Part shown: positions 823 through 16,481 of the stretch, in pieces
Layout: each line of letters opens with the position of its first letter
Numbering within the stretch: the first letter of the stretch is position 1
Assembly (NCBI GenBank): GCA_048884965.1
Contig: JBHLQH010000055.1
Location: forward strand, 1 to 16,481
Source: Candidatus Thorarchaeota archaeon
GTDB lineage: Archaea > Asgardarchaeota > Thorarchaeia > Thorarchaeales > Thorarchaeaceae
Length of the DNA: 16,481 nucleotides
Reading direction: 5' to 3'
Notes under the pieces: model-generated
Database searches by the model: none
Told to the model about the DNA's origin: nothing
The model's input: the letters and a program-made list of their open reading frames with translations, nothing else
Position numbers and translations under genes: made by a program

Positions 823-1983
823 TTAAGAATGATTCAGAATGATCTCATGATATAATTGGACAATCTTTTCTACTGCTTCGTCCAATGAATATTTTCTAGC
901 TGCCTTTCTGGCTCTATCACCATATCGCAACCTCAGTTCTTCATCTTTCGCCAATTGGAGAATTTCCAGAGCAAGCTGACTCGAATTCCCAATCTTAAAG
1001 TATCTAAAGCAATCGAAGTTTCCTAGTTCTCTCAATGAACGGAGATTACTTACAATGCATGGTTTCCCGGATGCCATAGCTTCAAGAAGTGAAATGGGAC
1101 TCCCCTCACTTTCGGAAGGAAGGACAAAGATATCAAACTCTGAAAGTTGTTTGCTAACGTTTCTAGTCCATCCTAGAAATTTGACATTCTTCTCTAATCC
1201 AAGACTCCTGCTTTGCTTCTCTAGTGATTCTCTAGAAACCCCATCTCCAACAATCCTAACCTCGAACTGAATCTTCTTTTCGGTCAGTATCTTCGCGGCT
1301 TCTATAAGAGTTTCAAGTCTTTTAACCGTCACTAATCTGCCAATATAGCCAATTACAATTTTTTCTTCTACATTCTGTTTTCTCTCAAGGCTGAAGAATT
1401 GATCCTTCAAGAAAGCAGCTTGAATTGTGCATCTTAGAGGGTCTGCGCCATCCTCAACAAGTAACCTAGAAGTTGTGGAATCCGTTGTAACTAGTCTTTT
1501 CGTATTTCTTATCGTCCATAGATAGAGCAATCGCTCGACTGCCCACGATATTGTATGATCCTTGTTTTTGTGAGGTTGAGGATAGGCTCCATGAGAATGT
1601 ACCACAGAGGGAATTCCTCTAATCTTGTATATAATCGATGCTGCAAAACCCGAATAGACTGGATCCTGTGCATGAATTATGTGAATATGTTCTTGCTTCG
1701 TCAATCTTAATAGAGACAAGACGAGAACAAATGACATCAGAAGCATGCTTAGAAAATATAGTATCTGCAAGCCTAGTGTACTCTTTTTTGGCGGTGCAAT
1801 AACCGGTGACGATTCACCGCAATCTCTTGTGATTTCCACTAATCTAATCAGACCGACCCTTCTGTATAATACGATAGGTGTTATAGCTTTATTGCGTAAA
1901 GATTTGCACAATGTTCTGGTATACTCCTCCACGCCTCCAACAGCTTCAAAGACACGATGAGATGACACTAATGCTACTTTCAT
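823..1983 (-). CDS. GT4-family glycosyltransferase
   Basis: N-terminal GGVEEY, IIHAQD, VVHSHG, GYIGRLVTVKR, IVGDG and canonical PSESEGSPISLLEAMASGKP. GGGAGG lies 5 nt before the ATG at 1983; the ORF track uses TTG at 1986. Confidence 0.93.
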   Translation of the reverse strand: MKVALVSSHRVFEAVGGVEEYTRTLCKSLRNKAITPIVLYRRVGLIRLVEITRDCGESSPVIAPPKKSTLGLQILYFLSMLLMSFVLVLSLLRLTKQEHIHIIHAQDPVYSGFAASIIYKIRGIPSVVHSHGAYPQPHKNKDHTISWAVERLLYLWTIRNTKRLVTTDSTTSRLLVEDGADPLRCTIQAAFLKDQFFSLERKQNVEEKIVIGYIGRLVTVKRLETLIEAAKILTEKKIQFEVRIVGDGVSRESLEKQSRSLGLEKNVKFLGWTRNVSKQLSEFDIFVLPSESEGSPISLLEAMASGKPCIVSNLRSLRELGNFDCFRYFKIGNSSQLALEILQLAKDEELRLRYGDRARKAARKYSLDEAVEKIVQLYHEIILNHS

Positions 1984-1994
1984 CAATGCCTCCC

Positions 1995-3047
1995 TCAGTT
2001 CTCGTCGCTTGAAACAGATTTGATTTCTTTATTCTCTCTCATTGATTCATACATGGTTGCTACATCGCGTAAAGCAAGATACCCATCTTGTCCAGTAACT
2101 AAGGGAGTTCTTCCTTCTTTAAGACACAAGAGGAAATTGCCAATCAGCATTTTATGAGTATTCTCTAGATTGTTGAAGCCAAATGAAGCTGCAAATCTTG
2201 TTACCGTTCGTGTGAAGTTTAGCCATCGCTTAGCTGGATTCCTAGGTTCATGTACTTCTTCATAATATCCAAGCATTGGTTCAATGTAAATCACACCTGC
2301 TGATCCTCTAAGTGTTATTGGACATGCTGTATAATCTGAAATCCAACTCAATTCCATTGAAACTCTTGTTGTAGCACAGGTTACGATGGACAATGATGAA
2401 GTATCTGTATTGTTGGTTGACTTGAAAATTGTCGTATCAATTGAATAGATTGATGTGATTTCCCCAAGAATCCATCTAATTAGATCTAGAGTATGTATGC
2501 CTTGGTCCATAGAAACACCTCCCCCAGACACTTCCGGATTGAAATGCCAATCAGTCGCGGGGTATCCAATAGAGGGTCCTGTTACGAATGAATTGAAATC
2601 TGCATGATAGATATCACCAAGACGCCCATCCCCTATTGTCTTCTTTGCTCTTTGAATTGTACTATAGAACCGTCTATTATGAACTACTCCACAGATCACA
2701 CTCTTTCTTGCCGCGGTAGTTAGAATCTCTTTTGCGTCACTCTCTTTTGTGGCAATTGGTTTCTCTATCAGAACTGGAATTCCTGCCTTAAGGAAATCTA
2801 CAGCTATTTCTTTGTGATAAAACGGAGGTGTAGTGATACAGACAAAATCCAGATTCTTCTCGAGAATTGCTTTGTAGTCTGATTCTGCATTCTTCACTTT
2901 GAACTTACGCGCTATGCTCTTAGCACGTTTGAGATTAGTATCAACGACATAATCTATCTCAACTCCCTTCAAAGATGCTAGAGCTGGAAGGTGAGATAGC
3001 TTTGCAATAGTGCCACCACCTATCACGGCTCCTCTCATTGGATTCAT
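1995..3047 (-). CDS. Gfo/Idh/MocA-family NAD(P)-dependent oxidoreductase, probably a sugar or nucleotide-sugar dehydrogenase
   Basis: Rossmann motif GAVIGGGTIA, ITTPPFYH, EKP motif, HNRRF and catalytic GGGVSMDQGIHTLD (D-x3-H). RBS GAGGTG lies inside the 3' end of the upstream gene. Confidence 0.92.
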   Translation of the reverse strand: MNPMRGAVIGGGTIAKLSHLPALASLKGVEIDYVVDTNLKRAKSIARKFKVKNAESDYKAILEKNLDFVCITTPPFYHKEIAVDFLKAGIPVLIEKPIATKESDAKEILTTAARKSVICGVVHNRRFYSTIQRAKKTIGDGRLGDIYHADFNSFVTGPSIGYPATDWHFNPEVSGGGVSMDQGIHTLDLIRWILGEITSIYSIDTTIFKSTNNTDTSSLSIVTCATTRVSMELSWISDYTACPITLRGSAGVIYIEPMLGYYEEVHEPRNPAKRWLNFTRTVTRFAASFGFNNLENTHKMLIGNFLLCLKEGRTPLVTGQDGYLALRDVATMYESMRENKEIKSVSSDEN

Positions 3048-3049
3048 TT

Positions 3050-3997
3050 CTAGGCACCTCGTGATGAAATTGAAAGAAACAGTGAAGTCATCTGGTCGAT
3101 AAGAGATCTCCTACCATCCATTATTTGTACAAAAGCTGAAGTATCCCCACGTAATTCGTAGTTGGCTGAACCTAAACCAATCTTTGCAGCTAGTCTGAGA
3201 TGTCTGATTTTCTTGGGATTCTTTCCCACAAGATACGCACATGCCGCATCAAAGGCTACAGGGTCGAATGATGCCATAATCAGATTAGTCCTAACCGGCG
3301 TGCCAGTAACAACACCACCTTTCAAAGATATAATCGCATCAAGAATCGATAGATCGGGTGGGCACATTCTCACTGCATCAACTATAACCTGAGATATCTG
3401 CTTGTGATACTTTGACTTATTCCTTTCAGGTAAACATCCAAACTGATTCTTCAGAGTCCCAGTTATTCCAGTCATCTCGTGTGCTTTCAGTTTGGGAACA
3501 GAAATGAGATAATCACAAGTCTGAAGTATCTTTGGTATCTTATGATCCCTCAACACATAGCCCTCCATCTTGATACTTACGCGAGGTTCGTTCGTGAGGT
3601 TAATGAGATCGACATCGAATTCATCAGCAATCTCAGTCCATCCTAGTGCTTGATATGCTAGATCTAGATTATTGATCGTCGCATCCGATTCTATGATGCT
3701 AATCTTTGCATCAGTTTTTTTCTGGATAAATCGGATAATAGATTTAACGAGTTTGGGATCAGTTGTAACTCCTGTATTAGATTTCTTCAATAAACAAATG
3801 TTGGGTTTGATACAGATATGTTTCTTTTCGGATAACTCCATGCTTCCCTCAAGATCGTCAAGAAGTCTATCGACACTCATTTCAAGGTCATTTGAAACTC
3901 GTGATATATAGACTCCTGATTTGCTAACCAATTGTAGACTCACCTTAGTTCTGATACTTTTTCTCTCTTCTTCTATTAGCAGCTCGGTTGTTGTCAT
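3050..3997 (-). CDS. DUF362-family protein (putative Fe-S or metal-dependent enzyme)
   Basis: Family motifs IKPNIC...TTDP, IIESDA, SVPKLKAH, TGTLKNQFGC, LSILDAI and DPVAFDA. There is no C-terminal ferredoxin extension. Confidence 0.85.
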   Translation of the reverse strand: MTTTELLIEEERKSIRTKVSLQLVSKSGVYISRVSNDLEMSVDRLLDDLEGSMELSEKKHICIKPNICLLKKSNTGVTTDPKLVKSIIRFIQKKTDAKISIIESDATINNLDLAYQALGWTEIADEFDVDLINLTNEPRVSIKMEGYVLRDHKIPKILQTCDYLISVPKLKAHEMTGITGTLKNQFGCLPERNKSKYHKQISQVIVDAVRMCPPDLSILDAIISLKGGVVTGTPVRTNLIMASFDPVAFDAACAYLVGKNPKKIRHLRLAAKIGLGSANYELRGDTSAFVQIMDGRRSLIDQMTSLFLSISSRGA

Positions 3998-4024
3998 ATA
4001 GTTATTGTGCAGGCAGGAGATGTT

Positions 4025-5566
4025 TTAATCACCAAAGAGAATTCCTGAAATCCATTTGAGATAAGGATGAAAACGCTGTCGCGTATCCTCTGATGTGAAC
4101 ACCTCAAGAATTTCTACACCATCTGCTTTCAAAATAACTCCGAATTTCGTGTAGATTATGAATGATATGACTAAGATTAGAGGGATTCCAATGAACCATT
4201 GAATGTCAAATAGAATACATCCGATGGCAAAAGCCGAAGGAGTTAGTATTGCTTTCATGTAGAGAACCCAAGCTGGTCTATAGGAGATAATGTATGAACT
4301 ACAGGCCATCCCCATCAAACCAAGAACGATCCCCAAAAAATAACCCCAAGCCACTCCCATAACCCCAAACATGCCTGCAAGTAAGAAATAGAACACCAAC
4401 CTACTTCCATTGATGGCGAGTCCAAGAGATACAACGTGGTAGTATCTCTTTATTGCATAGACATAGCCATAATATCCTGCATAGATCGCATAGAAAGGTG
4501 CACCAATTACAAGAATCGAAAGAAGTGGAGCAGAGCCTGCATATTGTGGTCCAAGCATCATTAATGGGATTGCAGAGTATAAGGTGACTGAAATGGAAAT
4601 TGGGGCTGTGATAGCTACAGCTATTTTTGTCATTCGTGTAATTGCTGTTTTCCGACCACTACTCATTCCACTCATAACTGGATACATTAGTCCCAAGATA
4701 CTAGTAGGAATTGCATAAACAACTGCTGCTATTGCGTATGCTAGATAGTACAATCCCGTTTCTGTTTGTCCTATAAGTGCATATGTGGATAGAATGGCAA
4801 ACGACTGTCCTGAAATCGTCAAAATGTTCGGAATCCATGCTGGTAGTCCAGCTATCACTGATTCTTTCCAAAATTCTTTCTCTGGTTTCAGAGACACCTT
4901 TTGCCTTTTGAAGAATGAATATGCTGCATATGACAAAACCATATCTGCAAGAAGGCTGGATATCGCAAATGTTGTCATAATCGCGATGAAACCCAGTCCC
5001 ATGACAAATAAGAATAGACCGATTGTGATTTTCGCGATTGCGGATAGTATTTGAGATATTGCTGTAATTCTTGTCCTCAACAATGAATCGAAGAGCGACA
5101 TGAGTAGAGGAGTAAACACGTTTAGCAGAGTAAGAAGCACAACAAACAGAATATCAGAAGAAGAAATGCCCAGAGCTCCTTGATACAGATTTGCGAACAG
5201 CGTGAGTACTATGACCGCAGAAAAACTGAGAGTTGTCATGATCAATAGATTTGTACTAAAGTAGCCACTCATTCTGGAGTAGTCTTCATCGTCCATCGTT
5301 TTTCCAATGAATCTCTTCATTCCTGTAGGAAGTCCTAGTGATACAACTACGACCAACAAACCCTGAAGAGCGATTATCGCAGATGCAATTCCAACAATAT
5401 CAGGCGGAACAAAGCGTGAGGCAAGTATCCAATAGACATACCCAATGATATTTGTCGAAAGCCCTCCAATATAGATCCATAAGCCGCTTTTTACAATCCT
5501 TCCTGTGCTCATTGTTTTCTGGCACATCTCCAGCATGGATCTATCTTTATCATTATGAAATCTCAC
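4025..5566 (-). CDS. Wzx/MOP-superfamily oligosaccharide flippase
   Basis: About 14 hydrophobic segments. N-terminal pattern KSGLWIYIGG...NIIGYVYWILASRF, SLGLPTGMKRFI, mid-protein ETGLYYLAYAIA and LMYPVMS, and LGPQY. The GTG start overlaps the upstream stop (GTGA); an alternative ATG start is at 5512 (MSTGRIVKSG). Confidence 0.88.
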   Translation of the reverse strand: MRFHNDKDRSMLEMCQKTMSTGRIVKSGLWIYIGGLSTNIIGYVYWILASRFVPPDIVGIASAIIALQGLLVVVVSLGLPTGMKRFIGKTMDDEDYSRMSGYFSTNLLIMTTLSFSAVIVLTLFANLYQGALGISSSDILFVVLLTLLNVFTPLLMSLFDSLLRTRITAISQILSAIAKITIGLFLFVMGLGFIAIMTTFAISSLLADMVLSYAAYSFFKRQKVSLKPEKEFWKESVIAGLPAWIPNILTISGQSFAILSTYALIGQTETGLYYLAYAIAAVVYAIPTSILGLMYPVMSGMSSGRKTAITRMTKIAVAITAPISISVTLYSAIPLMMLGPQYAGSAPLLSILVIGAPFYAIYAGYYGYVYAIKRYYHVVSLGLAINGSRLVFYFLLAGMFGVMGVAWGYFLGIVLGLMGMACSSYIISYRPAWVLYMKAILTPSAFAIGCILFDIQWFIGIPLILVISFIIYTKFGVILKADGVEILEVFTSEDTRQRFHPYLKWISGILFGD

Positions 5567-6840
5567 CTTTTAGTAGCAAATTCCCGAATCCTTTGCGTCA
5601 TATTGAAGAATGTATCAAGCACAACACTGTACATCCTAAGTAGAAACCACAATCTTGGTACTCTGGCAAGGTAACGGCCGATTTTCATAAATAGAACTTC
5701 TAATATGTCATTTGAGGACATACTTGCCTTGTGAATTATGTCAGTCCTCTTGTAGGGATGATTCTTTCTCATGAGCTCCATTATTGTCAATCTTGTTCCT
5801 AGTTTCATATGTTTTGACTCTATCATCATTCTCTGGGACTTCTTTACCGATTGCCAAGTAATTGGTGATGAATGAATGTATCCACGCTCCGTTGCTTTCT
5901 GAATAATGCTTTCCCCAATTATTGTATATGTATCAAATACCGAAGTTCCAGAGTTGTCGCTTTCAACAACTTCATCGATCCAAAAGTCTCCGCAGGAGAT
6001 GTCGGCTTTAAGTCCGAATCCAGCTATGCATATCAGGCAACGGTTCAAGTAGAACCATCTGGCCACCTCCGGCCAGTAATCAGTATAACGTCTTCGTATC
6101 AACTTGTTAGAGGTCTGTACTTTGAGCAATCCTGGCCATCCATCACCCCTGTATTGAATACGAGTGACATCCTCTCTATCTATAGATTGCCTATGTAGTA
6201 CATAATCAGTTCCATGTATGCTTAGTGTCCCTCCACAGAAAAGACTGACGAAATACTTGATTGATGATGGGATGATTTTACGTTCTTGTAGGACCTTCAA
6301 AGAATATATGTGACAAGGAAGTCCTACAAATGCATATGTTTTGTCTTCTTCGAGTTGCTTTAGTGTTGGTCCCACTAAGGATGGAGTGTATTTCGAGCCC
6401 ATAGCTCTCCTGATTTCGTTGTTATTACTTGCTAGGAAGGGCAATGCTGAATGACACAACCTTGGATTGAAATCCGTCACAATCGCAGCATCGATTTCAT
6501 TATTATCTAGCAGATAGCTCAAAATGGAAGTGACAACACCTCCAGATGCTGATTTATACCTAATAACACCATCCTTTGCAAAACCAATATATGATTTCAA
6601 AGGGCTCCGCAATGAAGTTTCAATTAGGTTGGTATTTGAATCGATACCGGTATTAGCCCCAAAACAGGGTTCAATGCATAAACCACACTCATTACATTTC
6701 TCGTTCACTTCAGGTCGATATAGACCAAGAGATTGATCGAATACAATACTTATGGCTTCTCTAGGGCAGACTAAATCACAAACTCCGCAGCCGATACAGA
6801 GTCCAGATTGAACTACATCTTTCACACTTCTAATGCTCAA
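5563..6840 (-). CDS. Coenzyme F420 hydrogenase/dehydrogenase beta-subunit (FrhB/FdhB)-family FAD/Fe-S oxidoreductase with N-terminal 2x[4Fe-4S] domain
   Basis: Ferredoxin motifs CIGCGVCDLVCP and CNECGLCIEPC. FrhB signatures SASGGVVT, GSKY, VGLPCH, LFCGG, YRGDGWPG, RCLIC and ADISCGDFW. The TTG start overlaps the murA stop region. Confidence 0.9.
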   Translation of the reverse strand: MSIRSVKDVVQSGLCIGCGVCDLVCPREAISIVFDQSLGLYRPEVNEKCNECGLCIEPCFGANTGIDSNTNLIETSLRSPLKSYIGFAKDGVIRYKSASGGVVTSILSYLLDNNEIDAAIVTDFNPRLCHSALPFLASNNNEIRRAMGSKYTPSLVGPTLKQLEEDKTYAFVGLPCHIYSLKVLQERKIIPSSIKYFVSLFCGGTLSIHGTDYVLHRQSIDREDVTRIQYRGDGWPGLLKVQTSNKLIRRRYTDYWPEVARWFYLNRCLICIAGFGLKADISCGDFWIDEVVESDNSGTSVFDTYTIIGESIIQKATERGYIHSSPITWQSVKKSQRMMIESKHMKLGTRLTIMELMRKNHPYKRTDIIHKASMSSNDILEVLFMKIGRYLARVPRLWFLLRMYSVVLDTFFNMTQRIREFATKR

Positions 6841-8098
6841 TCACCTCTATACTAGCTCCAATATTAAGCAGCTTCTGGGGAAGACATTCATAGCCTCTTT
6901 CTATGTGTTCAAAACCTTGGACAATCGTCGTACCTGATGCAACGAGGCCTGCGATGACTAAGGACATGCCACCTCTGAGTTCACTAGCCTTCACACTTAC
7001 ACCCTTTAGCTGTTTCCTCCCCTCAATCACTAGCGTATCTCCATGCATCTCAATAGAAGCCCCCATTTTATTCAATTGTGTTACATGCTTGAATCGATCC
7101 TCAAAGATTGATTCTCGTATTTTGGAGGTTCCGTTACACTGAGTTAGCAATGTAGTTGTTTGTGCTTGTAGGTCTGTTGGAAATCCTGGGTAGGGCGCTG
7201 TAGAAACCATCGTATTCCTAAGCGTATTGCCATCGGATACGATTCGAGCAGTATTACTGTCGAGATACTCAATTTCCACTCCTATCTGCTCGAGCATTCC
7301 AAATAGAGATTCAAGATGTGTAGCCACAATATCATGTAAGGTAAGTTCTCCCTTTGCTATGGCACCGATAATCGCGTACGTACCTGCTTCAATCCTGTCA
7401 GGAATGATTTTGTGTTTAACCCCAGAGGTTGACAATCCCCCATGAATGATGACCTCTCGATATGTGGAATTCAAGGATACATCCATGCCCATTTGCCTGA
7501 GTAGGGTGATCATATTTGAAACCTCGGGTTCAATGGCTGCATTCTTGATCAATGTAGTACCTTCTGCTCCACAAGCAGCTAAAATTGTATTTTCGGTGGC
7601 TCCTACACTGGGAACGGGGAATGTGATTTTTGTGCCTTTAAGCTGGTCCGCCCTCACTATTGTTTTCTCAGGAGTTTCAATAACATTTGCACCAAGAGCC
7701 TTGAATGCATTCAGGTGTAGGTCAATAGGCCTAGAACCAATAGCACATCCTCCGTAGCCATGTATGATCACCTCACCATATTTTGCCAATAATGCTCCCA
7801 TCAGGATTGTCGAACCTCTAATTCTCTGGGAGATTAATGGCAATTCTCTACTTTCAATGCTTGCGTTTGTAATTGTCAATACCTTATCATTATACTTCAA
7901 AGAAACCCCTAATTCCTGCAATATCTGATTCATCGTCAAGATATCAGAAACATCTGGCACATTGGAAAGTGTAACAATCTCGTCAGATAGCAGCGAAGCA
8001 GCGCAGCAAGGAAGAGTCGCATTCTTGCTACCCCCTATACTGACATCCCCCTCAATTTCATCCTGAGCATGGATTATTAATTCCTTATTTCTGCTCAC
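6830..8098 (-). CDS. murA: UDP-N-acetylglucosamine 1-carboxyvinyltransferase (enolpyruvyl transferase)
   Basis: The MurA landmarks are present: GSKNA (K22/N23, E. coli numbering), R91, GGCAIGSRPIDLH (C115/R120), SVGATEN, NAAIEPE, PDRIEAGT, TAPYPGFPTDLQ (D305), IFEDRF (R331), LRGG (R371) and HIERGYE (R397). The likely start is GTG at 8098, 1 nt after the upstream TAG. The ORF-track start at 8131 would overlap the GT4 gene by 32 nt. Confidence 0.95.
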   Translation of the reverse strand: MSRNKELIIHAQDEIEGDVSIGGSKNATLPCCAASLLSDEIVTLSNVPDVSDILTMNQILQELGVSLKYNDKVLTITNASIESRELPLISQRIRGSTILMGALLAKYGEVIIHGYGGCAIGSRPIDLHLNAFKALGANVIETPEKTIVRADQLKGTKITFPVPSVGATENTILAACGAEGTTLIKNAAIEPEVSNMITLLRQMGMDVSLNSTYREVIIHGGLSTSGVKHKIIPDRIEAGTYAIIGAIAKGELTLHDIVATHLESLFGMLEQIGVEIEYLDSNTARIVSDGNTLRNTMVSTAPYPGFPTDLQAQTTTLLTQCNGTSKIRESIFEDRFKHVTQLNKMGASIEMHGDTLVIEGRKQLKGVSVKASELRGGMSLVIAGLVASGTTIVQGFEHIERGYECLPQKLLNIGASIEVIEH

Positions 8099-8099
8099 T

Positions 8100-9245
8100 C
8101 TAAATGACTTCCATCTTTTTGTATATTTCAACTAGCTCGCTAGTGTATTTATCAATTCTGAAGGATTGCGCTCTCTCAGCAGCGTTATTCTTCAATCGAT
8201 TACGAATCTCGTTATTCTCTAGCATTCTTCTTAGTCCGCTACTGATAGATTCTGGCGATGGACTCGCAAGAATTCCTGAGACCTCGTTCTCAACAACCTC
8301 AGAGGTTTCTTCTACATTTGTTGCCAAGACTGCTAGACCCGCAGCCATTGCTTCTCTAAGTGATAGGCTCGGAGAGTTGGCGATTGGCGATGTTGCTAGG
8401 AAAATGTCTGATTTCCATAGATATGGTCTGATATCCATAATCTTTCCTAGGAATTTGACTTTCTGGCCAAGTTCATTTTTCTTTACGAAATCACTAAGTT
8501 GCGAAAGCATATCGCCTTCTCCAATAATCAGAAGATTGGCGTTTGGAAATTCCTTATGTATTCTTGAAAATGCCTGGAGTGCGAGAAAGGGTCCTCTACG
8601 ATAACTTAGTCTTCCCACAAACAGTAGTGTAATCTCGTCATCATTTATTCGATCTTTCGTTCTACTTTCGGCATTTCGATACCGATCTACTGGAATCGGA
8701 TTTCTAAGCAAAGCAATGTTCCTTGCTCCTTTTTCAGAAAGATATTCGAGAGATTCCTTTCTGTTTACAATGATATAATGGCTTTGCAAAAGCGATTCTA
8801 CGATTTCCGGAGGAATGTCCTCCGATTCCCTACCAAAACGTCCGTGCACTGTGACAATATGCTTTTTCTTGGTCTTCAGAGATAATTTGATTCCGAAATT
8901 TAGGTCATGCAGTGTTCCAAGCTGTGAATGAATTACATTAGCATCCTTTGAAATAGCTATTGCAGCACCAATCCCCGATTCTATATATGTAATGGGTGAA
9001 AGCAATTGTGAGATGTATCTGAGTTGTCTGAATCTAGATTGCGGAATTGGATTCAAACCTACCCTGAAGACCTCAAAGGATTCTTGTCTTTCATATCTTG
9101 GTAAGTGGAAGTAATGTCGAGTAATGATGGAAGAGTCTATACCTTCCTTCTGAAGACTTTCCGATATGTTTAGGATATATCGTTCGACACCTCCAATTGA
9201 AACCGGTGGAAAGTAACTTGTTATGAAGCAAACCTTTCCGATCAC
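8100..9245 (-). CDS. GT4-family glycosyltransferase with atypical N-X7-E donor-binding motif
   Basis: FITSYFPPVSIGGVERY, VIHSQ, VTVHG, LRNPIP, LFVGRLSYRRG, IIGEG and ANSPSLSLREAMAAGL. The GTG start overlaps the upstream TAG (TAGTG), with GGAGTGA upstream. Confidence 0.9.
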   Translation of the reverse strand: MIGKVCFITSYFPPVSIGGVERYILNISESLQKEGIDSSIITRHYFHLPRYERQESFEVFRVGLNPIPQSRFRQLRYISQLLSPITYIESGIGAAIAISKDANVIHSQLGTLHDLNFGIKLSLKTKKKHIVTVHGRFGRESEDIPPEIVESLLQSHYIIVNRKESLEYLSEKGARNIALLRNPIPVDRYRNAESRTKDRINDDEITLLFVGRLSYRRGPFLALQAFSRIHKEFPNANLLIIGEGDMLSQLSDFVKKNELGQKVKFLGKIMDIRPYLWKSDIFLATSPIANSPSLSLREAMAAGLAVLATNVEETSEVVENEVSGILASPSPESISSGLRRMLENNEIRNRLKNNAAERAQSFRIDKYTSELVEIYKKMEVI

Positions 9246-12200
9246 TATAGATTCACTCCAACTCCATGTAGGAAAACCGGGGCAATCAGTATAATACTTG
9301 GGGATATCATTACCGTTCTCAACTGAAATGCATCTTGTGAAACAAATCTCTCACCGTTCAGCGTAATATTATACGGTACACCAGACCATAATGAATTGAA
9401 AGCAAGAAATCCGGATCCTTCCAACTCTGTAATTCTTATCAGAAAGGGCTCATCGAAGTCCAAGTCTTGATGTACTATGGAATTGCTGTCGTGGACTATC
9501 ATGAAGCCATTTACTTTTACAAGAGAGTACCCAAATAAGATGGATGAGATACTGATTTCTCCATGGAATTCGAGAATTCCGTCATCAATGCCGTCTACTA
9601 ATCCTGCGCCATCTTCACTGTATTGTATTCGAAGGATTCCATCAAGATGTATCTCTCCCCTGTTCTTCAGATAAAATCCTCTTTCGAACTCAGATTTCTC
9701 TTGGAGGTCTAGGATATTCTGGAAGAGGTATTGAAGGACGCTAGATATTCGAATGGAATCTTGATGGATATCAGAACCCTGCAATGAACTGATCAGGGGC
9801 CCTACATTGAGGTATGTCATGGACGACTCATTGGTCAACAGAATCTCTATTACAAATGGGATGGATTGGTTCTCAGATTGATATACTCCTTGGCTTGTTT
9901 GACCGCTGACATTGACATACTGAGCTTGAACCCGTGGGATGGGAAATGTGGAAGATCCAATTCTAATACTTTCAATGTCCAATGACACTTCTGAGAATGA
10001 GATATTGCAGAAATCGGTGATAATACTACTATTGGTCAGGTTCCCAACGATGATTATATTGTGTCCATCTTGGACAAGTTGACTTATCTCTGATATCTTC
10101 TTCATATTATTCTGTGAGTCCGTATAGATGATCGTTCTCTCATGTGATGTATTGAAATGGAACGAAGAGATTGTGGTATAGCTGATCCCTGACATTGATA
10201 GTATCATCTGTATATCATTGAAGAACTCACTCTCGACTCCAAATGCAACCTTTGAGATATCCGCTGCTATCTCACTGACACTCTCATGAAACTTATTTGT
10301 CAATCCTAACAATAATCCAACGACATGAGATTTCTCCTCATTTAGAGGTGTGACTGCATAAGTCCAATCCTCACTTGTCATATAGGGTGTTCCACTCAGG
10401 AGAGCATTCTCTCTAGTTCCATCTTGATATATCATTGTGAGGATTAGTTTGGAATACTCCTGCGTTCTGAATTTTATGTATATATTCATGTCACTCTGTA
10501 TTTGAATGGGTTGCTCCAGGTAGGATTCATAAAATACCACGATTTTATGATTACTTAGCCCAGTAGCTGACAAGTGAGCATATGATGTATCAGAGCTTAC
10601 GAATGAGTAATCTGTAACATTAGCCAAAGCACTGTAGACAGGACTCCACTTTGAGATATCTGTAATATTCTGATCCCAAATTAAATCTGAAGACACTCCA
10701 GTTTCTATGCATGTTTCAACAGGTAGATGATCTTGGATGAACAAAGTATCTGCATCCAATGATGAATGGGTAAGATTGGAGACTGCGTATACTGTGAAGA
10801 AATCGTCATGATATGAAATATGTGCGAATTCAAAGATCTTGTCCAGATGGAGATCATAAGCATGGTTATCGATGATATGGCTGACATTTAGATATTCCAA
10901 TACATAGAGCTGACTGCCCAAGTCCGAATGACGAGAACATATCTCTCCAAAAATATCGGTCTGCTGAGTGTATACAGGTATCCCCAGTAATGCTGAAGCG
11001 AAGGAATAGATGGATGAGTGAGACAAAAAGGATTCTCCATCAGAACTCTCATAGCTTCTGAGATAATCGCCAAGTCCTGCCAGATTGCTTTGATCAGCTG
11101 TGGTTGCAGAAGTATACTCCACTTTCAGAAGATGTGAAAACGAAGCAGTTGAAATAAGCAATCCCACAAGCAATACTGTCACGATTATGTTCTTTGATAT
11201 AAAAGCTGATTTCCTCAAATCGCGCGAGATTAGAATCTTGCCAACTCCTAATCCTGCTGCAACCGAAACAATAGCCCAAGTAACATCCCTAAAATATCTG
11301 AACTCATCTAAGTTCAATCTAAATGGGATGATTGAATTCAAGGGAAGATGATAGAGAATTGCTTCAAACGCAAACACACCAGTAAAAATCATCAGCAATG
11401 CAAGTGTATCTTTAACATTCTTTGAATCGATTTTCCATATCCAAAAGAGAAAGAATATCCCCACAAATCCTAGTTTAATAGGGATGTAGAAAACCGGAAA
11501 GACTGAACAGTGTTGAAGTGGCATTGCATTGTTAATTATTCCCAGCATCGATACTAGGAAATAACCTATCGTCGCAATGAGAATCAACTTCCTGATATGA
11601 ATTTCAAGAAATTCCTGAATTCCCCCGAATCCTTTTACCTTATTCAAATTTAGTACTGAAAGGATAAGGATTCCCCCTCCACACACTAATAGTACAACAA
11701 GCACTGTTCCATAAACCGGAATATAGAGCTTCATCACTGCCAATGTATCAATTACAAAAACAAAACTCACGCTAATCATAATCGAAATCCCCAATTCCTT
11801 TGTGCGAATAGGTTTCTCATGTAGTATCACCTGAACTAATGAAATGAGGATTACCACAATTGCAAGTATAACTCCCTTTTCAATATGAGCAAGTAACATC
11901 AATGTAAAAAGCAGCGTCTGGATACCAACCAATCTCTTTGAAGTAATCTCAGTATTTACAAGGGTTCCAATGAGAATGAAGAATGCTGTGATATCAACTA
12001 GATATGGTGCTACTATGATTGGAAACCATGTTGAAAATATGATATCACATGCTCCAATTGCTGCTTGATAAATCGCAAGAATCTCAGTTTGAAATGGTAG
12101 GAGAAATAGGCTAACAATCCAGCCAAAGCCAGAAAAGACCTGAAAAAGCAAAGTTGAGAGGACTCCTAAATCATTGCTATTCAAGAGTCTTCTACTCATA

Positions 12201-13153
12201 GCATAGAATGAGAGGGTTGGCAGGGGCAATAGTATTATCGAGCTAAGAAGATATAGTGAAACAATTGGGACTCCGGTTAGTCCGATAATCACCGCCAGAA
12301 ACATGTGAAACAAATACGGATAGGAAAGCATTGAGATGCGACCAAGCTCAACCTCTTGCCAGGAGTAGTAATCGTTGAGGAACTTCGTTATATTTGAAAC
12401 ATGTCCATACTCATCACCAATAAGCGGGAGCACTCCTGTAAGATCATGAATTGTGAAATAAGAGAAAAGTAGGAAGGCTATACTCAGAATCAAAATACTA
12501 GCTGAAACAAGCTGAACTTGAAATCCTGTGTTTGAGTTCGAAGACTCTACTACCCTCTTCTTGTAGAAATATCCCACTAGTAAAAATGTATTCAGTATTA
12601 GAAATAGTGGATTTATCGCAAATGTAAATGGACCAACTATCCAAGATCCAAAACCTATCAAGCCAGTAAGAAGAAAGCTAGTAAGAATCGAAATCAAGCC
12701 TGTTTCAATAGTTGTCAAGTTCTTTCCTAATCCAAGTATGCTTAGCAGCGAGTATCCGGAAAGACAGGTTGATAGGATAACAACCGAAACCAATCCAATA
12801 CCTTCTGCGAGTACTAGACTCTTAATCGAAGTAGGTAACACACTGTAAACAGTATATACTGCTAGGAGCATCAAGTAGATTAGGAAGACGTCTTTCCAAC
12901 TTTGAGATCTATGAATGGTGATTTCCCTGTCATGTTTGAAAATATACTTCATGGAACATAGATAGCTTATAATTCCCAGAATTAGGCTGAACACTATTTT
13001 GTTTGGTATTGAAAAGGGGAACAACAATGTGACAATCAAAGAAATTATGGCAGAAAGTGATGAAAAAGCATGAGAGCGCTTGGAATCTGTTTGAGTCTGA
13101 AATGTCGCCGAGTCTTCGGTTCCTACAGACTGCATTGCAAAATCCGACTCCAA
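9245..13153 (-). CDS. Large polytopic membrane protein, putative GT-C-fold glycosyltransferase with ~620-aa extracytoplasmic C-terminal domain
   Basis: The N-terminal ~680 aa contain many hydrophobic segments. A loop motif IGDEYGH is followed by YPYLFH, resembling the acidic first-loop motif and YPP-like motif of GT-C enzymes; DEFRYF follows later. The soluble C-terminal domain carries 12 N-X-S/T sequons. A strong RBS (GAGGTGA) lies 5 nt before the TTG start. The ORF is secure but the function is inferred. Confidence 0.6.
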   Translation of the reverse strand: MESDFAMQSVGTEDSATFQTQTDSKRSHAFSSLSAIISLIVTLLFPFSIPNKIVFSLILGIISYLCSMKYIFKHDREITIHRSQSWKDVFLIYLMLLAVYTVYSVLPTSIKSLVLAEGIGLVSVVILSTCLSGYSLLSILGLGKNLTTIETGLISILTSFLLTGLIGFGSWIVGPFTFAINPLFLILNTFLLVGYFYKKRVVESSNSNTGFQVQLVSASILILSIAFLLFSYFTIHDLTGVLPLIGDEYGHVSNITKFLNDYYSWQEVELGRISMLSYPYLFHMFLAVIIGLTGVPIVSLYLLSSIILLPLPTLSFYAMSRRLLNSNDLGVLSTLLFQVFSGFGWIVSLFLLPFQTEILAIYQAAIGACDIIFSTWFPIIVAPYLVDITAFFILIGTLVNTEITSKRLVGIQTLLFTLMLLAHIEKGVILAIVVILISLVQVILHEKPIRTKELGISIMISVSFVFVIDTLAVMKLYIPVYGTVLVVLLVCGGGILILSVLNLNKVKGFGGIQEFLEIHIRKLILIATIGYFLVSMLGIINNAMPLQHCSVFPVFYIPIKLGFVGIFFLFWIWKIDSKNVKDTLALLMIFTGVFAFEAILYHLPLNSIIPFRLNLDEFRYFRDVTWAIVSVAAGLGVGKILISRDLRKSAFISKNIIVTVLLVGLLISTASFSHLLKVEYTSATTADQSNLAGLGDYLRSYESSDGESFLSHSSIYSFASALLGIPVYTQQTDIFGEICSRHSDLGSQLYVLEYLNVSHIIDNHAYDLHLDKIFEFAHISYHDDFFTVYAVSNLTHSSLDADTLFIQDHLPVETCIETGVSSDLIWDQNITDISKWSPVYSALANVTDYSFVSSDTSYAHLSATGLSNHKIVVFYESYLEQPIQIQSDMNIYIKFRTQEYSKLILTMIYQDGTRENALLSGTPYMTSEDWTYAVTPLNEEKSHVVGLLLGLTNKFHESVSEIAADISKVAFGVESEFFNDIQMILSMSGISYTTISSFHFNTSHERTIIYTDSQNNMKKISEISQLVQDGHNIIIVGNLTNSSIITDFCNISFSEVSLDIESIRIGSSTFPIPRVQAQYVNVSGQTSQGVYQSENQSIPFVIEILLTNESSMTYLNVGPLISSLQGSDIHQDSIRISSVLQYLFQNILDLQEKSEFERGFYLKNRGEIHLDGILRIQYSEDGAGLVDGIDDGILEFHGEISISSILFGYSLVKVNGFMIVHDSNSIVHQDLDFDEPFLIRITELEGSGFLAFNSLWSGVPYNITLNGERFVSQDAFQLRTVMISPSIILIAPVFLHGVGVNL

Positions 13154-13158
13154 TTATC

Positions 13159-13165
13159 TCACCTC
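13159..13165 (-). promoter_or_regulatory. Shine-Dalgarno site (GAGGTGA) of the 1302-aa membrane protein gene
   Basis: The minus strand reads GAAGAGAGGTGAGATAA-TTG, which is complementary to the conserved 16S rRNA 3' end (UCACCUC). Confidence 0.7.
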
Positions 13166-13232
13166 TCTTCGAAGAACTTCAAAAGGTTTCTGCTTTTGAT
13201 ATCAAGGATTCGATTTCTAAAGTTATCTTGAT

Positions 13233-14132
13233 TTACTTCTTTATACCCAGTACTCCGATATTCGATGTTCGCAGATCATCTTCATTCTTGTACTTTATCG
13301 AGGCATCAATTTTGTCAGGTATATTTGCATCCTCACGAATGAATGTATAGATTATCTTAAATTCCATATTCGGGATTGCTTCAAAAATCTCCACCCATTC
13401 ACTCTGTCTTATCCTATTTCCTCTCCAACTTTGGATTTCAGAATTATATCTTGATTCTGTTTCTGAAAGAAAAGCAAATGGTTCTTTGATACTATCCTTA
13501 TGATCTTCTAAATGGATATTGTGGAGCATAATCCCTTCAGATTTTAAATCACATGCAAGATTCGAAAGTACTGTTACAACATCGGTTTTTGGGACATGCT
13601 CCAACACAGCATTCGAATAGATGAAATCAACTGCCTTACCTAGTGTATCTGTTGCGAAATCTATTGGCGTGATATATGATATTCCAATATCCCTCAATGT
13701 CTTAAAGGTGAAATTTCGTATGTTAGACAGTTGATTAAGTCTGGATCGAATTCTCCCGTGTTCTTCGAAGGATGCTAAACCATCTCTTATGACATAGCAA
13801 GTAGAATTACTAATTGAGGTTTTCAGAGCTGAGGGTATCGCATTGTTAACGATATCAGTACAAACGACCTGTTTCGCTCCAAGCAAATGAAAAATAAGAG
13901 AATGAGAGAGAACCCACCCAGCTCCAATCTCTAGGCAAACCTTGCTTCTGATAGGATATGTACCAGCTAGACCCGCTAAATGAAGACTATTGGATAATTC
14001 AAATGCACAAATATCCAATCGTTTTGATGATTTTGCTAGAGATTCAGCGTAATATTTCCGAGCAAAAGAGGTTTGTAACAATTGGCTCCTTAACTTCAAT
14101 GGAAGCAGAGATTTTATCTTTGATAGCATCAA
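13233..14132 (-). CDS. Class I SAM-dependent methyltransferase, probable glycan O-methyltransferase
   Basis: Motif I CLEIGAG, acidic end of beta-2 (VVCTDI), DFIYSNAVLEHV and LKSEGIMLH. Start is TTG 14132 or ATG 14129, after AAGGGGGA. Confidence 0.82.
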   Translation of the reverse strand: MMLSKIKSLLPLKLRSQLLQTSFARKYYAESLAKSSKRLDICAFELSNSLHLAGLAGTYPIRSKVCLEIGAGWVLSHSLIFHLLGAKQVVCTDIVNNAIPSALKTSISNSTCYVIRDGLASFEEHGRIRSRLNQLSNIRNFTFKTLRDIGISYITPIDFATDTLGKAVDFIYSNAVLEHVPKTDVVTVLSNLACDLKSEGIMLHNIHLEDHKDSIKEPFAFLSETESRYNSEIQSWRGNRIRQSEWVEIFEAIPNMEFKIIYTFIREDANIPDKIDASIKYKNEDDLRTSNIGVLGIKK

Positions 14133-14242
14133 GACTCATTCCCCCTTTACAGAAATATCTACGGATTGCATTAGATTCTACCATAAAAACGATGTCACAA
14201 TCATGAATGGATCCTTACCATAGTAGAATTCATGAATAATCG

Positions 14243-14250
14243 CTTATATA
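14243..14250 (-). promoter_or_regulatory. Possible archaeal TATA box upstream of the methyltransferase gene and downstream operon
   Basis: TATATAAG on the minus strand in the largest intergenic gap (14133-14273), about 110 nt upstream of the start. The BRE match is poor. Confidence 0.3.
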
Positions 14251-14273
14251 GCATTGATTGAATACAATCGTTT

Positions 14274-15668
14274 TCAACTCTTAATGATATATGTATCCTG
14301 TCTTCTTTCTTCAATCTGTTGGAACTTGCTAGTTATATCAACAAGGAATTTGCTTGATAATAGAAATAGAAGAGGTTGAATTGGCACTCTATGTCTAGGT
14401 AGTGCAAAACCAACAAAATAGGGTATTGAGAAGAACACAAAGGCAACACTCAGGAAAACAGCAAATGGATCTTTTCGATTCATCATTATGTGCATCAGTG
14501 CCGACAACAATAATGGAACATAGATTAGTTGACGTATCAAAGGATTCTGTTCCGGTACTGATGAGGTATACCACCAGTAATCAGAGATTTTTCTGAATAC
14601 GTTATTTACGGTTTCAGACACATGAGTGAACATATAATTCCAAGCAATCTCCCCAAAAGCAGTATCAATCTCTATCTCATTAGTGCTATTGATTTGATTC
14701 AGTAAATTGACATCATACCATGTCGGCACTCCTGTTTCAGTGTATTCTGGATTATTTCCTCTCCACAGGTTGAATCCTGTATCTTTCAGAAAAATAGGTG
14801 ATCCTTCTGATAGGCTAATGCAGCGAGATTCCCATGGTAGTATAATCATCGAACATAGAATAGCTGCTATGAAGACATATCTCAAATGTCTGGGGTTGGG
14901 GGAAGAGATGGTCAATCTTCTTGCCTGCATGGTGTAACCTAATTCCCAAATAAAGAAGGGAAGTATCACGACGATGAATATTGGCTCGATATGGAGAGCG
15001 ATTCCGTAGGCCAATCCAGCATATGTGGCACTCTTTTTGGAGGGTTCCGAGTGAAGTGCCCAAGAGTATTTCACGATTAGAACAAAGAATAGTGTGGAGA
15101 ACACTAGATGATGTATAACTACAACTGAATAGATGAAATCTGGATGAAATGCTACAACTAATGATGCAATCATTGTAGTCTTTCCATCATATACCTGATT
15201 GGCAATCGAATAGATCACATATACTGTTAAGGAACCAATCAAAGCTTGAGAAAATAGAAGAAATTGAAGAGCCAATGCATTAGTGCCAAAAAGAACGAAA
15301 AAGAAAGCGATGAAGAAAGGATAGAATGGGGCAATGAAACATGTTTCTTGAATACCTGTCTTGGGAGGGAACGCATCGTAGGAAAATCCATTCCCATTGA
15401 CTAGGTTCATGGCAATCTCAACACTCTCATAGCTGGTACCATCTGTACCAACCATGTGAATCAGAAGAATTCTTACAAAGAACGCAGCCACCATTATGAC
15501 TAGAAAAGCAATCCGATTTCGTTGGGACTCGTTATCAGAAGATGTGCTATGATTTGTCTGCGTTTCCATATTCACCTTGTCCTGACATTCTATTCCTATA
15601 TTGATTGGTTGATTTCTTAGAACTTTTCCAGCAACAAGCATAATCTTGGATATCAAATCCATTTTCAT
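14274..15668 (-). CDS. ArnT/PMT-like (GT39/GT83-type, GT-C) membrane glycosyltransferase
   Basis: TM1 ends in RILL, followed by D..SYE..IAMNLVNGNGFS, APFYPFFIA, GFNLWRGNNP and C-terminal PRHRVPIQPLL, over about 11 TM segments. The real start may be ATG 15569 (METQTN..., preceded by AAGGTGA). Confidence 0.8.
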   Translation of the reverse strand: MKMDLISKIMLVAGKVLRNQPINIGIECQDKVNMETQTNHSTSSDNESQRNRIAFLVIMVAAFFVRILLIHMVGTDGTSYESVEIAMNLVNGNGFSYDAFPPKTGIQETCFIAPFYPFFIAFFFVLFGTNALALQFLLFSQALIGSLTVYVIYSIANQVYDGKTTMIASLVVAFHPDFIYSVVVIHHLVFSTLFFVLIVKYSWALHSEPSKKSATYAGLAYGIALHIEPIFIVVILPFFIWELGYTMQARRLTISSPNPRHLRYVFIAAILCSMIILPWESRCISLSEGSPIFLKDTGFNLWRGNNPEYTETGVPTWYDVNLLNQINSTNEIEIDTAFGEIAWNYMFTHVSETVNNVFRKISDYWWYTSSVPEQNPLIRQLIYVPLLLSALMHIMMNRKDPFAVFLSVAFVFFSIPYFVGFALPRHRVPIQPLLFLLSSKFLVDITSKFQQIEERRQDTYIIKS

Positions 15669-15683
15669 TCAGTGATTCTCTTT

Positions 15684-16481
15684 TCAATTAATTAAATCCT
15701 TCACATGAAATATACCCATGATGTTTGTACGTCCTTTGATATGGCGAGTCCCGGATGTGAAAACCACATCTTTGTCCTCATGAAGAAATCCCTTTTTGTA
15801 GACCGCCCTAACCGATTCCTTGACAAGATCGTCTACATTATCAACGTTCTCAGTATAGTAGACTGAATGTACTCCCCATAATAATCGAAGTCTTCTCATA
15901 AGAGTTGCATCACTTGTCACTGCATAGATGTCCGCTGGTGGTCTGAACTTGGAAATCCATCGTGCTGTGAATCCACTTCGTGTTGCTGTGATAATGCCAT
16001 TTACATTATCCGGAAGAAGCGCCACCGCATTATAGACAAGGTTCCCGATAACCTCCACAATCAGTTTCTTTGGAGATGTAAGGTCAATCGGATTTACTGG
16101 TGTAATACGCTTCTCAGCTTTTCTGGCGATCCGCTCCATCATCCGAACCGCCTCTACTGGGTCGTGCCCCATCGCAGTTTCTCCGCTCAGCATGACCGCA
16201 TCTGCTCTGTCAAAGACTGCATGAGCGACATCACTTACTTCTGCCCGTGTAGGTATCCGTTCAGTAGTCATGGATTCCAGCATATGGGTCGCGACAATTG
16301 CAGGTCGTGCCCAAACATTCGCCTTCCGAATCAAATCTCTTTGGAGGACCGGAACATCCTCAATTGGGACTTCAATTCCTAAGTCTCCCCTTGCTACCAT
16401 AACACCATGAGACTCCTCCAGAATCGCATCATAGTTCTGTATCGCCAGGAGATGCTCTATCTTGACTATCACATCGACATT
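15684..16481 (-). CDS. pyk: Pyruvate kinase, C-terminal part (5'-truncated by window edge)
   Basis: VKIE, GVMVARGDLGIEVP, ATHMLESM, PTRAEVSDVA, DAVMLSGETAMG, TRSGFTARWISKFRP and LLWGV. The frame is open to base 16481. Confidence 0.97.
   Translation of the reverse strand, partial: NVDVIVKIEHLLAIQNYDAILEESHGVMVARGDLGIEVPIEDVPVLQRDLIRKANVWARPAIVATHMLESMTTERIPTRAEVSDVAHAVFDRADAVMLSGETAMGHDPVEAVRMMERIARKAEKRITPVNPIDLTSPKKLIVEVIGNLVYNAVALLPDNVNGIITATRSGFTARWISKFRPPADIYAVTSDATLMRRLRLLWGVHSVYYTENVDNVDDLVKESVRAVYKKGFLHEDKDVVFTSGTRHIKGRTNIMGIFHVKDLIN

Follow-up and report, generated by a model that had tools for sequence, protein, structure and literature searches.

The 16,481-nt contig JBHLQH010000055.1 of assembly GCA_048884965.1 (Candidatus Thorarchaeota archaeon) was analysed over its whole length and is referred to here as the window; it is the entire contig C55 of the genome bin G000. 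All genes over nt 823-16481 are on the minus strand, and at the centre lies a glycan cassette specifying a 1302-residue membrane protein with a predicted GT-C-type glycosyltransferase core, a glycosyltransferase of family GT4, a MurA, an FrhB-like iron-sulfur (Fe-S) flavoprotein and then a Wzx-type flippase. In order of transcription these are:

nt 9245-13153, minus strand: 1302-residue membrane protein with a GT-C core as predicted by structure comparison, first gene of the cassette
nt 8100-9245, minus strand: GT4 glycosyltransferase (Pfam Glycos_transf_1 and Glyco_transf_4) with a variant E-x7-E motif
nt 6830-8098, minus strand: MurA (UDP-N-acetylglucosamine 1-carboxyvinyltransferase; TIGR01072)
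nt 5563-6840, minus strand: FrhB-like Fe-S flavoprotein (Fer4, FrhB_FdhB_N and FrhB_FdhB_C domains)
nt 4025-5566, minus strand: Wzx-type flippase (Polysacc_synt, PF01943)

An earlier note on this DNA had described the GT4, MurA and FrhB-like genes as tightly coupled and directly followed by the flippase gene, and had read the three as a complete module for making, reducing and transferring a muramic-acid-like sugar. The coordinates and junctions are confirmed, neighbouring genes of the trio either overlapping or lying 1 nt apart. A GTG codon at nt 8098 sits 1 nt past the GT4 stop codon and is the likely start of MurA (422 residues, the same length as from a gene caller), the open frame extending further to a TTG at nt 8131. 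The MurA and FrhB-like genes overlap by 11 nt, and the sequence GTGA is common to the FrhB-like stop codon and the flippase start codon. At the other end, direct reading of the junction showed that the stop codon of the 1302-residue protein gene and the start codon of GT4 share the sequence TAGTG, and this upstream gene belongs to the same unit. The trio therefore stands as a unit, but the module is larger than three genes and has at least four or five, including the GT-C enzyme.

The same arrangement was found in seven cassettes: those of the window, L043 (a 463-kb scaffold), L044/L045, L070 (a 107-kb contig), L073, the P0017 contig and G375, a genome of the same family. A gene for a protein of about 1300 residues precedes GT4 in all seven, and the order GT-C, GT4, MurA, FrhB-like is kept throughout (7/7). 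The nearest relatives of the FrhB-like protein, at 36-45% identity, likewise all occur in this arrangement, so that the adjacency of the MurA and FrhB-like genes first seen in the window is conserved among diverged cassettes. In pairwise comparisons of six copies, identity was 31-43% for the large protein, 40-58% for GT4, 46-56% for MurA and 37-52% for the FrhB-like protein; since the order is kept at such low protein identity, it has outlived a deep divergence. G375 and L043 likewise have a flippase gene after the cassette (product 47-55% identical). A tree built with about 70 MurAs of bacteria places those of the cassettes in a single clade (Shimodaira-Hasegawa-like approximate likelihood ratio support of 99-100), which is nested among the bacterial sequences and has long branches (0.5-1.1 substitutions per site). 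This pattern fits a single, ancient acquisition of MurA from bacteria, and horizontal acquisition followed by long retention is the best explanation for the cassette as a whole. Immediately upstream of the cassette on the 463-kb scaffold is a gene for a DDE transposase (L043, nt 589-1104), as might be expected if the island is mobile.

The bin (4.09 Mb, 95.7% complete, 7.2% estimated contamination) includes ribosomal protein L21e, which marks it as archaeal, while a 16S search of the bin found no small-subunit ribosomal RNA gene. A methanogen or pseudomurein context was excluded, as McrA was not found in the bin. The GC content of C55 is 0.399, compared with 0.441 for the genome, and its tetranucleotide distance ranks 89 of 91 contigs; because of this deviant composition, its membership of the bin was put to the test. 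Were the contig a misbinned bacterial fragment and its murA a housekeeping cell-wall gene, the contamination estimate, the tetranucleotide profile (second most deviant of the 91 contigs) and the bacterial affiliation of the nearest MurA relatives outside the cassette would all be accounted for. The same contig, however, ends within a pyruvate kinase gene that is the sole copy in the bin. Its encoded C-terminal 262 residues are 79-83% identical to the proteins of three same-genus genomes, 65-78% to those of the same family, 67% to that of a same-order genome and 46% to the sole same-phylum match, and as identity drops with kinship in this way, C55 is tied to the Thorarchaeia genome. In G375, a MurA that is 47% identical is encoded at 290 kb within a 471-kb contig, in a cassette of a 1308-residue protein, GT4, MurA, FrhB-like protein and flippase; the NCBI name on the 1308-residue protein is Candidatus Thorarchaeota archaeon. 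Core genes in the 180 kb surrounding that cassette are 50-85% identical to those of G000, and the surroundings are collinear with G000 contigs C2, C23, C79, C28, C58, C46, C43 and C16, the cassette itself being within a variable sugar island between core genes; the flanks of the island show 60-80% identity to G000 contigs. Linkage to a vertically inherited archaeal gene refutes misbinning unless the contig is chimeric, and the bacterial genes expected beside a housekeeping murA (MurB, Mur ligase, MurG and MraY) were searched for in the bin and none was found; we regard a bacterial origin of the contig as extremely improbable. C55 truly belongs to a Thorarchaeia chromosome, of which it is a variable glycan island with low GC content, and the possibility, raised by the earlier note, that the contig is bacterial can be set aside.

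Two other relatives also have a glycan locus beside pyruvate kinase, without the cassette. Across the three Thorarchaeia genomes compared (window nt 14274-16481; L081 on contig C48 of G004; L082 on contig C5 of G014), the glycan locus downstream of pyruvate kinase differs in gene content in each, and it has the look of a hypervariable island for surface glycans whose position in the chromosome is fixed. Another G000 contig, C47 (19.4 kb, GC 0.402), is the next most deviant of similar length and may be a further low-GC island of the same genome.

The MurA gene has no peptidoglycan pathway around it. As had been noted earlier, the window contains no murB, Mur ligase, mraY or murG gene (ddl was not searched for), and extending the search to the whole G000 genome gave the same outcome, with no matches to MurB or Mur_ligase_M, a best MurG score of 22 bits and a single MraY-type match that is AglH/GPT-like (71 bits, against a cut-off of 192). 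The genome encodes a single MurA. MurB and Mur ligases were not found in G375 (74% complete) either. A search of 40 relatives gave no true MurA, the matches being at the level of AroA only, and among 400 genomes of the phylum a true MurA was present only in G375 and G188. The G188 gene (L061, contig C176, nt 10163-11359, minus strand) is an orphan in a third Asgard genome; its product is 37% identical, has a long branch and falls outside the cassette clade, and its neighbours specify an 8xMP membrane protein, a NUDIX hydrolase, an orotidine monophosphate (OMP)-decarboxylase-like protein, an SPFH protein and a 948-residue DUF285 repeat protein. Neither MurB nor Mur ligase was found in the G188 genome. 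This MurA either comes from a contaminating contig or reflects an independent use of the enzyme.

The MurA of the window (open reading frame nt 6830-8131) scores 452.2 bits on TIGR01072 (cut-off 392.7; model positions 3-415 of 416). Its identity to numerous housekeeping MurAs is 43-47%, and its best solved relative is 6q03 (E 8e-99). In an alignment of six cassette MurAs with two bacterial MurAs, residues K25, N26, R94, C118, R123, S164-V-G166, D309, R335, R375 and R401 are invariant. Mapped by motif, these correspond to K22, N23, R91, C115, R120, S162-V-G164, D305, R331, R371 and R397 of the Escherichia coli enzyme, in which the Cys115 loop, Lys22, Arg120, Asp305 and Arg397 are catalytic, and Asn23, Arg91, Ser162-Val-Gly164, Arg331 and Arg371 contact UDP-N-acetylglucosamine (UDP-GlcNAc). 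From the family score and the intact catalytic residues it is well-founded to infer that the cassette MurA forms enolpyruvyl-UDP-GlcNAc. The invariance in the six cassette MurAs of all the UDP-GlcNAc-contacting residues of the E. coli enzyme, the equivalog cut-off passed and the identity to housekeeping enzymes also bear on the idea that the pathway runs as proposed below but that the acceptor has drifted to UDP-GalNAc, UDP-Glc or a lipid-linked sugar, giving some other lactyl-ether sugar that is not muramic-acid-like. Such a drift would be in keeping with the long branches of the cassette MurAs and with the lactyl ethers that E. coli O antigens bear on Glc, Rha and O4 of GlcNAc (PMC7685785); given the conserved sugar-binding residues, it appears improbable.

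The FrhB-like protein matched FrhB_FdhB_N with 61.6 bits (cut-off 22) and FrhB_FdhB_C with 93.2 bits (cut-off 23.3), as well as Fer4, and its sequence matches include 8rja_E, Fsr, FdhB and FrhB. Its predicted architecture comprises an N-terminal ferredoxin domain for two [4Fe-4S] clusters, an FrhB-type core for flavin adenine dinucleotide (FAD) and one [4Fe-4S] cluster, and two C-terminal helices. The AlphaFold model is of good confidence (mean predicted local distance difference test, pLDDT, 87.7; predicted template modelling score, pTM, 0.88), and its top 20 Foldseek matches were all FrhB, Fsr, FdhB or HCAR (E 1e-23 to 1e-12). Conservation is complete, or almost complete, for the eight cysteines of the ferredoxin domain, the four of the core and an S-G-G motif. 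Within the core, C176, C202, C268, C271 and S99-G-G are invariant in 12 homologues; by analogy with the family, the four cysteines would be the [4Fe-4S] ligands and S99-G-G would form part of the flavin site. The amphipathic helices at the C-terminus (residues 376-424, hydrophobic moment 0.4-0.66) are additional to the family core. Judged by its domains and motifs, the protein is a true member of the FrhB/FdhB/HCAR superfamily; it has none of the MurB domains (FAD_binding_4, MurB_C; TIGR00179) and is not a MurB homologue. A second FrhB-family gene is present in the genome (L089; G000 contig C13, nt 67787-68860; 357 residues, 27% identical). It was excluded as a part of the cassette system, being located beside genes for a CLC channel and an NTPase in a non-glycan setting and lacking the C-terminal helices.

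Coenzyme F420 had been put forward in the earlier note as a candidate electron donor for this protein. FrhB, FdhB and Fsr proper use F420 as substrate, but the FrhB/FdhB/HCAR family includes F420-independent members, as HCAR shows. CofH, the sole gene of the F420 pathway that was searched for, was not found in the 95.7%-complete genome, and bacteria encoding homologues of the FrhB-like protein include Stutzerimonas, Oribacterium and Sinorhizobium, which to our knowledge make no F420; on these two grounds, F420 is an unlikely donor. The ferredoxin domain points instead to a low-potential carrier, ferredoxin or another, as the probable donor.

Gene neighbourhoods point to the reaction that the FrhB-like protein may catalyse. 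Distant homologues (22-33% identity, with the same cysteine and S-G-G motifs) are encoded by genes that overlap or abut one for a PF04230 pyruvyl transferase, a pairing seen in two metagenomic bacterial-type Wzx/Wzy loci, Stutzerimonas stutzeri, Methanolobus, Oribacterium and a megaplasmid of Sinorhizobium medicae. Including the seven MurA cassettes, an FrhB-like gene stands beside that of a phosphoenolpyruvate (PEP)-dependent sugar transferase (MurA or PF04230) in 13 of 15 contexts, or 14 of 15 if a possible fusion is counted. The latter is a 1018-residue protein of Marinibacterium anthonyi (plasmid pLA6_007, L088, nt 2423-5479), annotated as 'coenzyme F420-reducing hydrogenase subunit beta', of which the C-terminal 420 residues are 45% identical to the FrhB-like subfamily and the N-terminal half may be a fused pyruvyl transferase. 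MurA and PF04230 proteins have unrelated folds and have nothing in common except the PEP-derived enolpyruvyl ether that each gives as product or intermediate. That two unrelated PEP transferases pair with FrhB-like proteins points to the enolpyruvyl group as the common element, one that a flavin enzyme could reduce.

Capsule loci of Klebsiella offer a possible parallel. The K66, K22 and K37 capsules probably carry lactyl ethers, which in K22 and K37 would be 4-O-(1-carboxyethyl)-glucuronic acid. The K66 capsule (cps) locus has a unique gene for a 'coenzyme F420 hydrogenase' together with one for a pyruvyltransferase (the pair HG203/wcqF), and those of K22 and K37 share genes for a pyruvyl transferase and a 'nitroreductase' (PMC4616057). 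Even so, the table of capsules in that source gives no pyruvyl group for K66, K22 or K37 (PMC4616057).

A second line of evidence came from the GT-C protein. A profile search with the membrane domain of the 1302-residue protein returned 354 representatives at E<=1e-3, among them P0227 (1418 residues, E 5.6e-98, 28% identical over 1220 residues). The P0227 locus (L086) has the order GT4, small open reading frame, GT-C, MurA, MurB on two contigs, and its GT4 is most similar to the cassette GT4 of the window. Its MurA scores 514 bits on TIGR01072, above the cut-off, and its MurB 246 bits on TIGR00179 and 341 bits on NF010480, both above the cut-offs. By these scores a canonical MurB fills, in this related cassette, the slot that is held by the FrhB-like protein in the Thor-type cassettes. 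On the strength of the PEP-transferase neighbourhoods and of MurB in the sister cassette's slot, the FrhB-like protein is proposed to be an enolpyruvyl-ether reductase and a functional analogue of MurB, as the earlier note had envisaged.

A different outcome would be that the MurA product is left unreduced, as the enol ether, or cyclises to a pyruvate ketal, the FrhB-like protein having some other redox task such as supplying electrons to another enzyme or reducing a different group. The reductase step is itself a prediction, one FrhB-like homologue has no PEP transferase neighbour, and two cassettes carry in the same operon a DUF362 protein and a GFO/IDH/MocA oxidoreductase, all of which would suit such an outcome. 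Most cassettes lack the latter two genes, whereas MurA and the FrhB-like protein are always adjacent, and a ketal would give a flavin reductase nothing to reduce. The pairing with two unrelated PEP transferases also argues for reduction, as does the MurB of the sister cassette, whose sole known reaction is enolpyruvyl reduction. We consider an unreduced product unlikely, and the same applies to the other tasks suggested for the FrhB-like protein. A further combination was seen on a 2.4-kb contig from the European Nucleotide Archive (P0106), which encodes a 594-residue fusion of a MurA domain (PF00275) with a zinc-type alcohol dehydrogenase/enoyl-reductase (PF00107); here the part joined to MurA may represent yet another, third type of reductase for the enolpyruvyl group.

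The 1302-residue protein had no Pfam match even at E<=1, there being only weak leads to the GT-C clan that fell below 0.9. It has about six extra transmembrane helices at the N-terminus, a GT-C core at about residues 207-730, and an external domain of about 570 residues with 12 N-X-S/T sequons, followed by a C-terminal transmembrane helix. For residues 1-730, AlphaFold gave a model of only moderate quality (mean pLDDT 67.7, pTM 0.77). When compared by VIA-align, the top 27 rows were all GT-C proteins (DPY19, STT3, AglB, ALG12, AftA, PglB, Pmt4 and EmbB), with Z 14-17.4, a root-mean-square deviation of 4.5-5.2 Å and 370-415 residues aligned; the rows after this set were unrelated helical proteins with Z<=7. 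Foldseek gave matches at E 0.01-0.1 only. On this modelling, residues of about 207-730 are a GT-C fold. A word-indexed sequence search with the protein returned three matches, compared with the 354 of the exhaustive profile search. The acidic motif GDE[YF]xH, a candidate counterpart of the conserved acidic residues in the first external loop of GT-C enzymes, is invariant in six GT-C homologues and lies just before model helix 247-260, in a stretch with pLDDT <50. The WWDYG motif (as WWDxG or W[WYF]D[YWF]G) was found in none of six homologues of the 1302-residue protein, which is therefore not classed as AglB or STT3.

The cassette GT4 matched Glycos_transf_1 (PF00534) with 121.1 bits and Glyco_transf_4 with 42.5 bits, in keeping with a two-domain GT-B architecture. 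It had been singled out as atypical, and the deviation proved to be a shared one: the motif N-[SF]-P-S-L-S-L-R-E-A-M-A-A-G is invariant in six cassette GT4s that are 40-58% identical overall, so that in every one examined the first Glu of E-x7-E is replaced by Asn while the second is kept. It is a speculation that the Asn variant accommodates a donor that is 3-O-substituted and negatively charged. The flippase matched PF01943 with 64.6 bits (cut-off 28.2; positions 2-272 of 274). The donors of GT-C enzymes are lipid-linked and are used at the outer side of the membrane, and the combination of a GT-C protein with a nucleotide-sugar GT4 and a Wzx flippase completes a logic of make, modify, load, flip and transfer.

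These elements suggest the following pathway. MurA would move the enolpyruvate of PEP onto O3 of UDP-GlcNAc, after which the FrhB-like protein would reduce the enol-ether double bond to a lactyl ether, the task of MurB carried out by an unrelated fold. Electrons would enter through the N-terminal two-cluster ferredoxin domain and pass by way of the third cluster to FAD. The variant GT4 would then put the modified sugar onto a lipid-linked glycan (alternatively, reduction may follow this transfer), the Wzx-type flippase would turn the lipid-linked glycan outward and the 1302-residue GT-C enzyme would transfer or polymerise it on the outer face. In this scheme the identity and stereochemistry of the product are predictions, as are the electron donor and the acceptor. 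Overall, the cassette probably makes and exports a surface glycan containing 3-O-(1-carboxyethyl)-GlcNAc, that is, N-acetylmuramic acid or its lactyl epimer, independently of peptidoglycan, and we assign this reading a probability of about 0.7. The fuller statement, that some Thor archaea display true muramic acid or its lactyl epimer on a surface glycan or glycoprotein, made by a ferredoxin-driven Fe-S flavoprotein that arose independently of MurB and installed by a hitherto unrecognised GT-C family of about 1300 residues, has in our estimate roughly an even chance of being correct.

Several points weigh against such a pathway. Muramic acid in an archaeal glycan is a prediction, the activities of the cassette enzymes having been read from their sequences, and we found no report in the literature of muramic acid or a lactyl ether from an Asgard archaeon. 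The cassette is rare (2/400 genomes of the phylum, plus the one unrelated MurA), and the lower GC content of C55 sets it apart from its genome. With regard to the reductase, gene neighbourhood shows a link to enolpyruvyl chemistry and not to the reaction itself, and no gene for a PEP transferase lies within 6 kb of one FrhB-like homologue. PF04230 proteins usually act on lipid-linked sugars and MurA on a nucleotide sugar, so the substrate of the reductase would differ between the two contexts. In the tree, the L086 MurA was not resolved as sister to the cassette clade, and the MurB-type and FrhB-like cassettes may thus have been assembled independently.

The remaining genes of the window, all on the minus strand, are the following:

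nt 823-1986, minus strand: second GT4 (Pfam), downstream of the GFO/IDH/MocA gene
nt 1995-3047, minus strand: GFO/IDH/MocA sugar oxidoreductase (Pfam), downstream of the DUF362 gene
nt 3050-3997, minus strand: DUF362 protein (Pfam), downstream of the flippase gene
nt 13233-14132, minus strand: weak methyltransferase-like open reading frame (Methyltransf_23, 23 bits, under its cut-off), upstream of the cassette
nt 14274-15668, minus strand: PMT_2-type GT-C protein (Pfam PMT_2, 33 bits), upstream of the cassette
nt 15684-16481, minus strand: C-terminal part of pyruvate kinase (Pfam PK and PK_C), cut by the contig end

The DUF362, GFO/IDH/MocA and second GT4 genes probably belong to the same glycan locus, outside its conserved core. 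Their order after the flippase recurs in L043 and is absent from G375, L044, L070 and L073. The pair of DUF362 and GFO/IDH/MocA genes thus follows the flippase in two cassettes (window nt 1995-3997; L043 nt 10923-12845), and the oxidoreductase is weakly similar to UDP-GlcNAc 3-dehydrogenase (133 bits, against a cut-off of 450).

Muramic acid serves as a biomarker of bacteria, and lysozymes as well as innate-immune and lectin receptors bind it as their ligand. If the proposed pathway is correct, this sugar or a close isomer would be present on the archaeal lineage nearest to eukaryotes, the biomarker rule that muramic acid means bacteria would fail and sediment signals would have to be read differently, with a bearing also on interactions between Asgard archaea and bacteria. 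The cassette would represent a clean non-orthologous displacement of MurB, an enzyme that is an antibiotic target. More generally, the FrhB-like subfamily would be the long-missing general enolpyruvyl-ether reductase for lactyl-ether sugars of bacterial and archaeal polysaccharides, which would give a function to the widespread polysaccharide-locus genes annotated as 'coenzyme F420 hydrogenase beta subunit' in organisms that do not make F420, and the large unnamed GT-C family would gain its first functional handle.

Sugars of this type are known from surface polysaccharides. N-acetylmuramic acid or isomuramic acid is a component of some O antigens, the former in Yersinia ruckeri and Proteus. 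Two glucolactilic acid genes were reportedly confirmed in Shigella boydii 17 (GenBank DQ875941), according to the title of a 2006 paper (cited in PMC5643014), and titles in the literature point to 'glycolactilic acid' genes in E. coli O69/O146; these genes may belong to the PF04230 and FrhB-like families. The O antigens of E. coli include lactyl ethers of Rha, Glc and GlcNAc (PMC7685785). Searches of the literature on lactyl ether biosynthesis returned peptidoglycan papers only, and those linking FrhB or F420 to pyruvyl transferases gave at most a survey of Klebsiella cps loci. In the library searched, no paper describes a MurA cassette in archaea or pairs FrhB-like proteins with PEP transferases.

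Compared with known systems, the chemistry is familiar while the reductase is non-homologous and the host domain and transferase family are new. Like the bacterial MurA/MurB route (EC 2.5.1.7 and EC 1.3.1.98), the cassette has a true MurA and a predicted flavoprotein reduction to the lactyl ether. It differs in that the reductase is not a MurB, has three predicted [4Fe-4S] clusters and probably takes electrons from a low-potential donor rather than from reduced nicotinamide adenine dinucleotide phosphate (NADPH), and in that the host is an archaeon without Mur ligases, MraY or MurG, where the product would pass to a Wzx and GT-C glycan pathway. Accessory MurA/MurB pairs in surface-glycan loci, of which L086 is an example, resemble the cassette in serving enolpyruvyl transfer and reduction for a non-peptidoglycan glycan, but they keep MurB and are known mainly from bacteria that also make peptidoglycan. 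With the FrhB-like/PF04230 pairs of bacterial polysaccharide loci the cassette shares the reductase subfamily, identical cysteines and S-G-G, and the tight coupling to a PEP transferase; its partner is instead MurA, with the 5-enolpyruvylshikimate-3-phosphate (EPSP)-synthase fold and a nucleotide-sugar acceptor. The GT-C protein, finally, resembles STT3/AglB/PglB and DPY19 in the modelled fold of its membrane core and in having a large external C-terminal domain, yet at about 1300 residues, with about six extra N-terminal helices and without detectable sequence similarity to them or a WWDYG motif, it falls into the unnamed family of 354 representatives described above.

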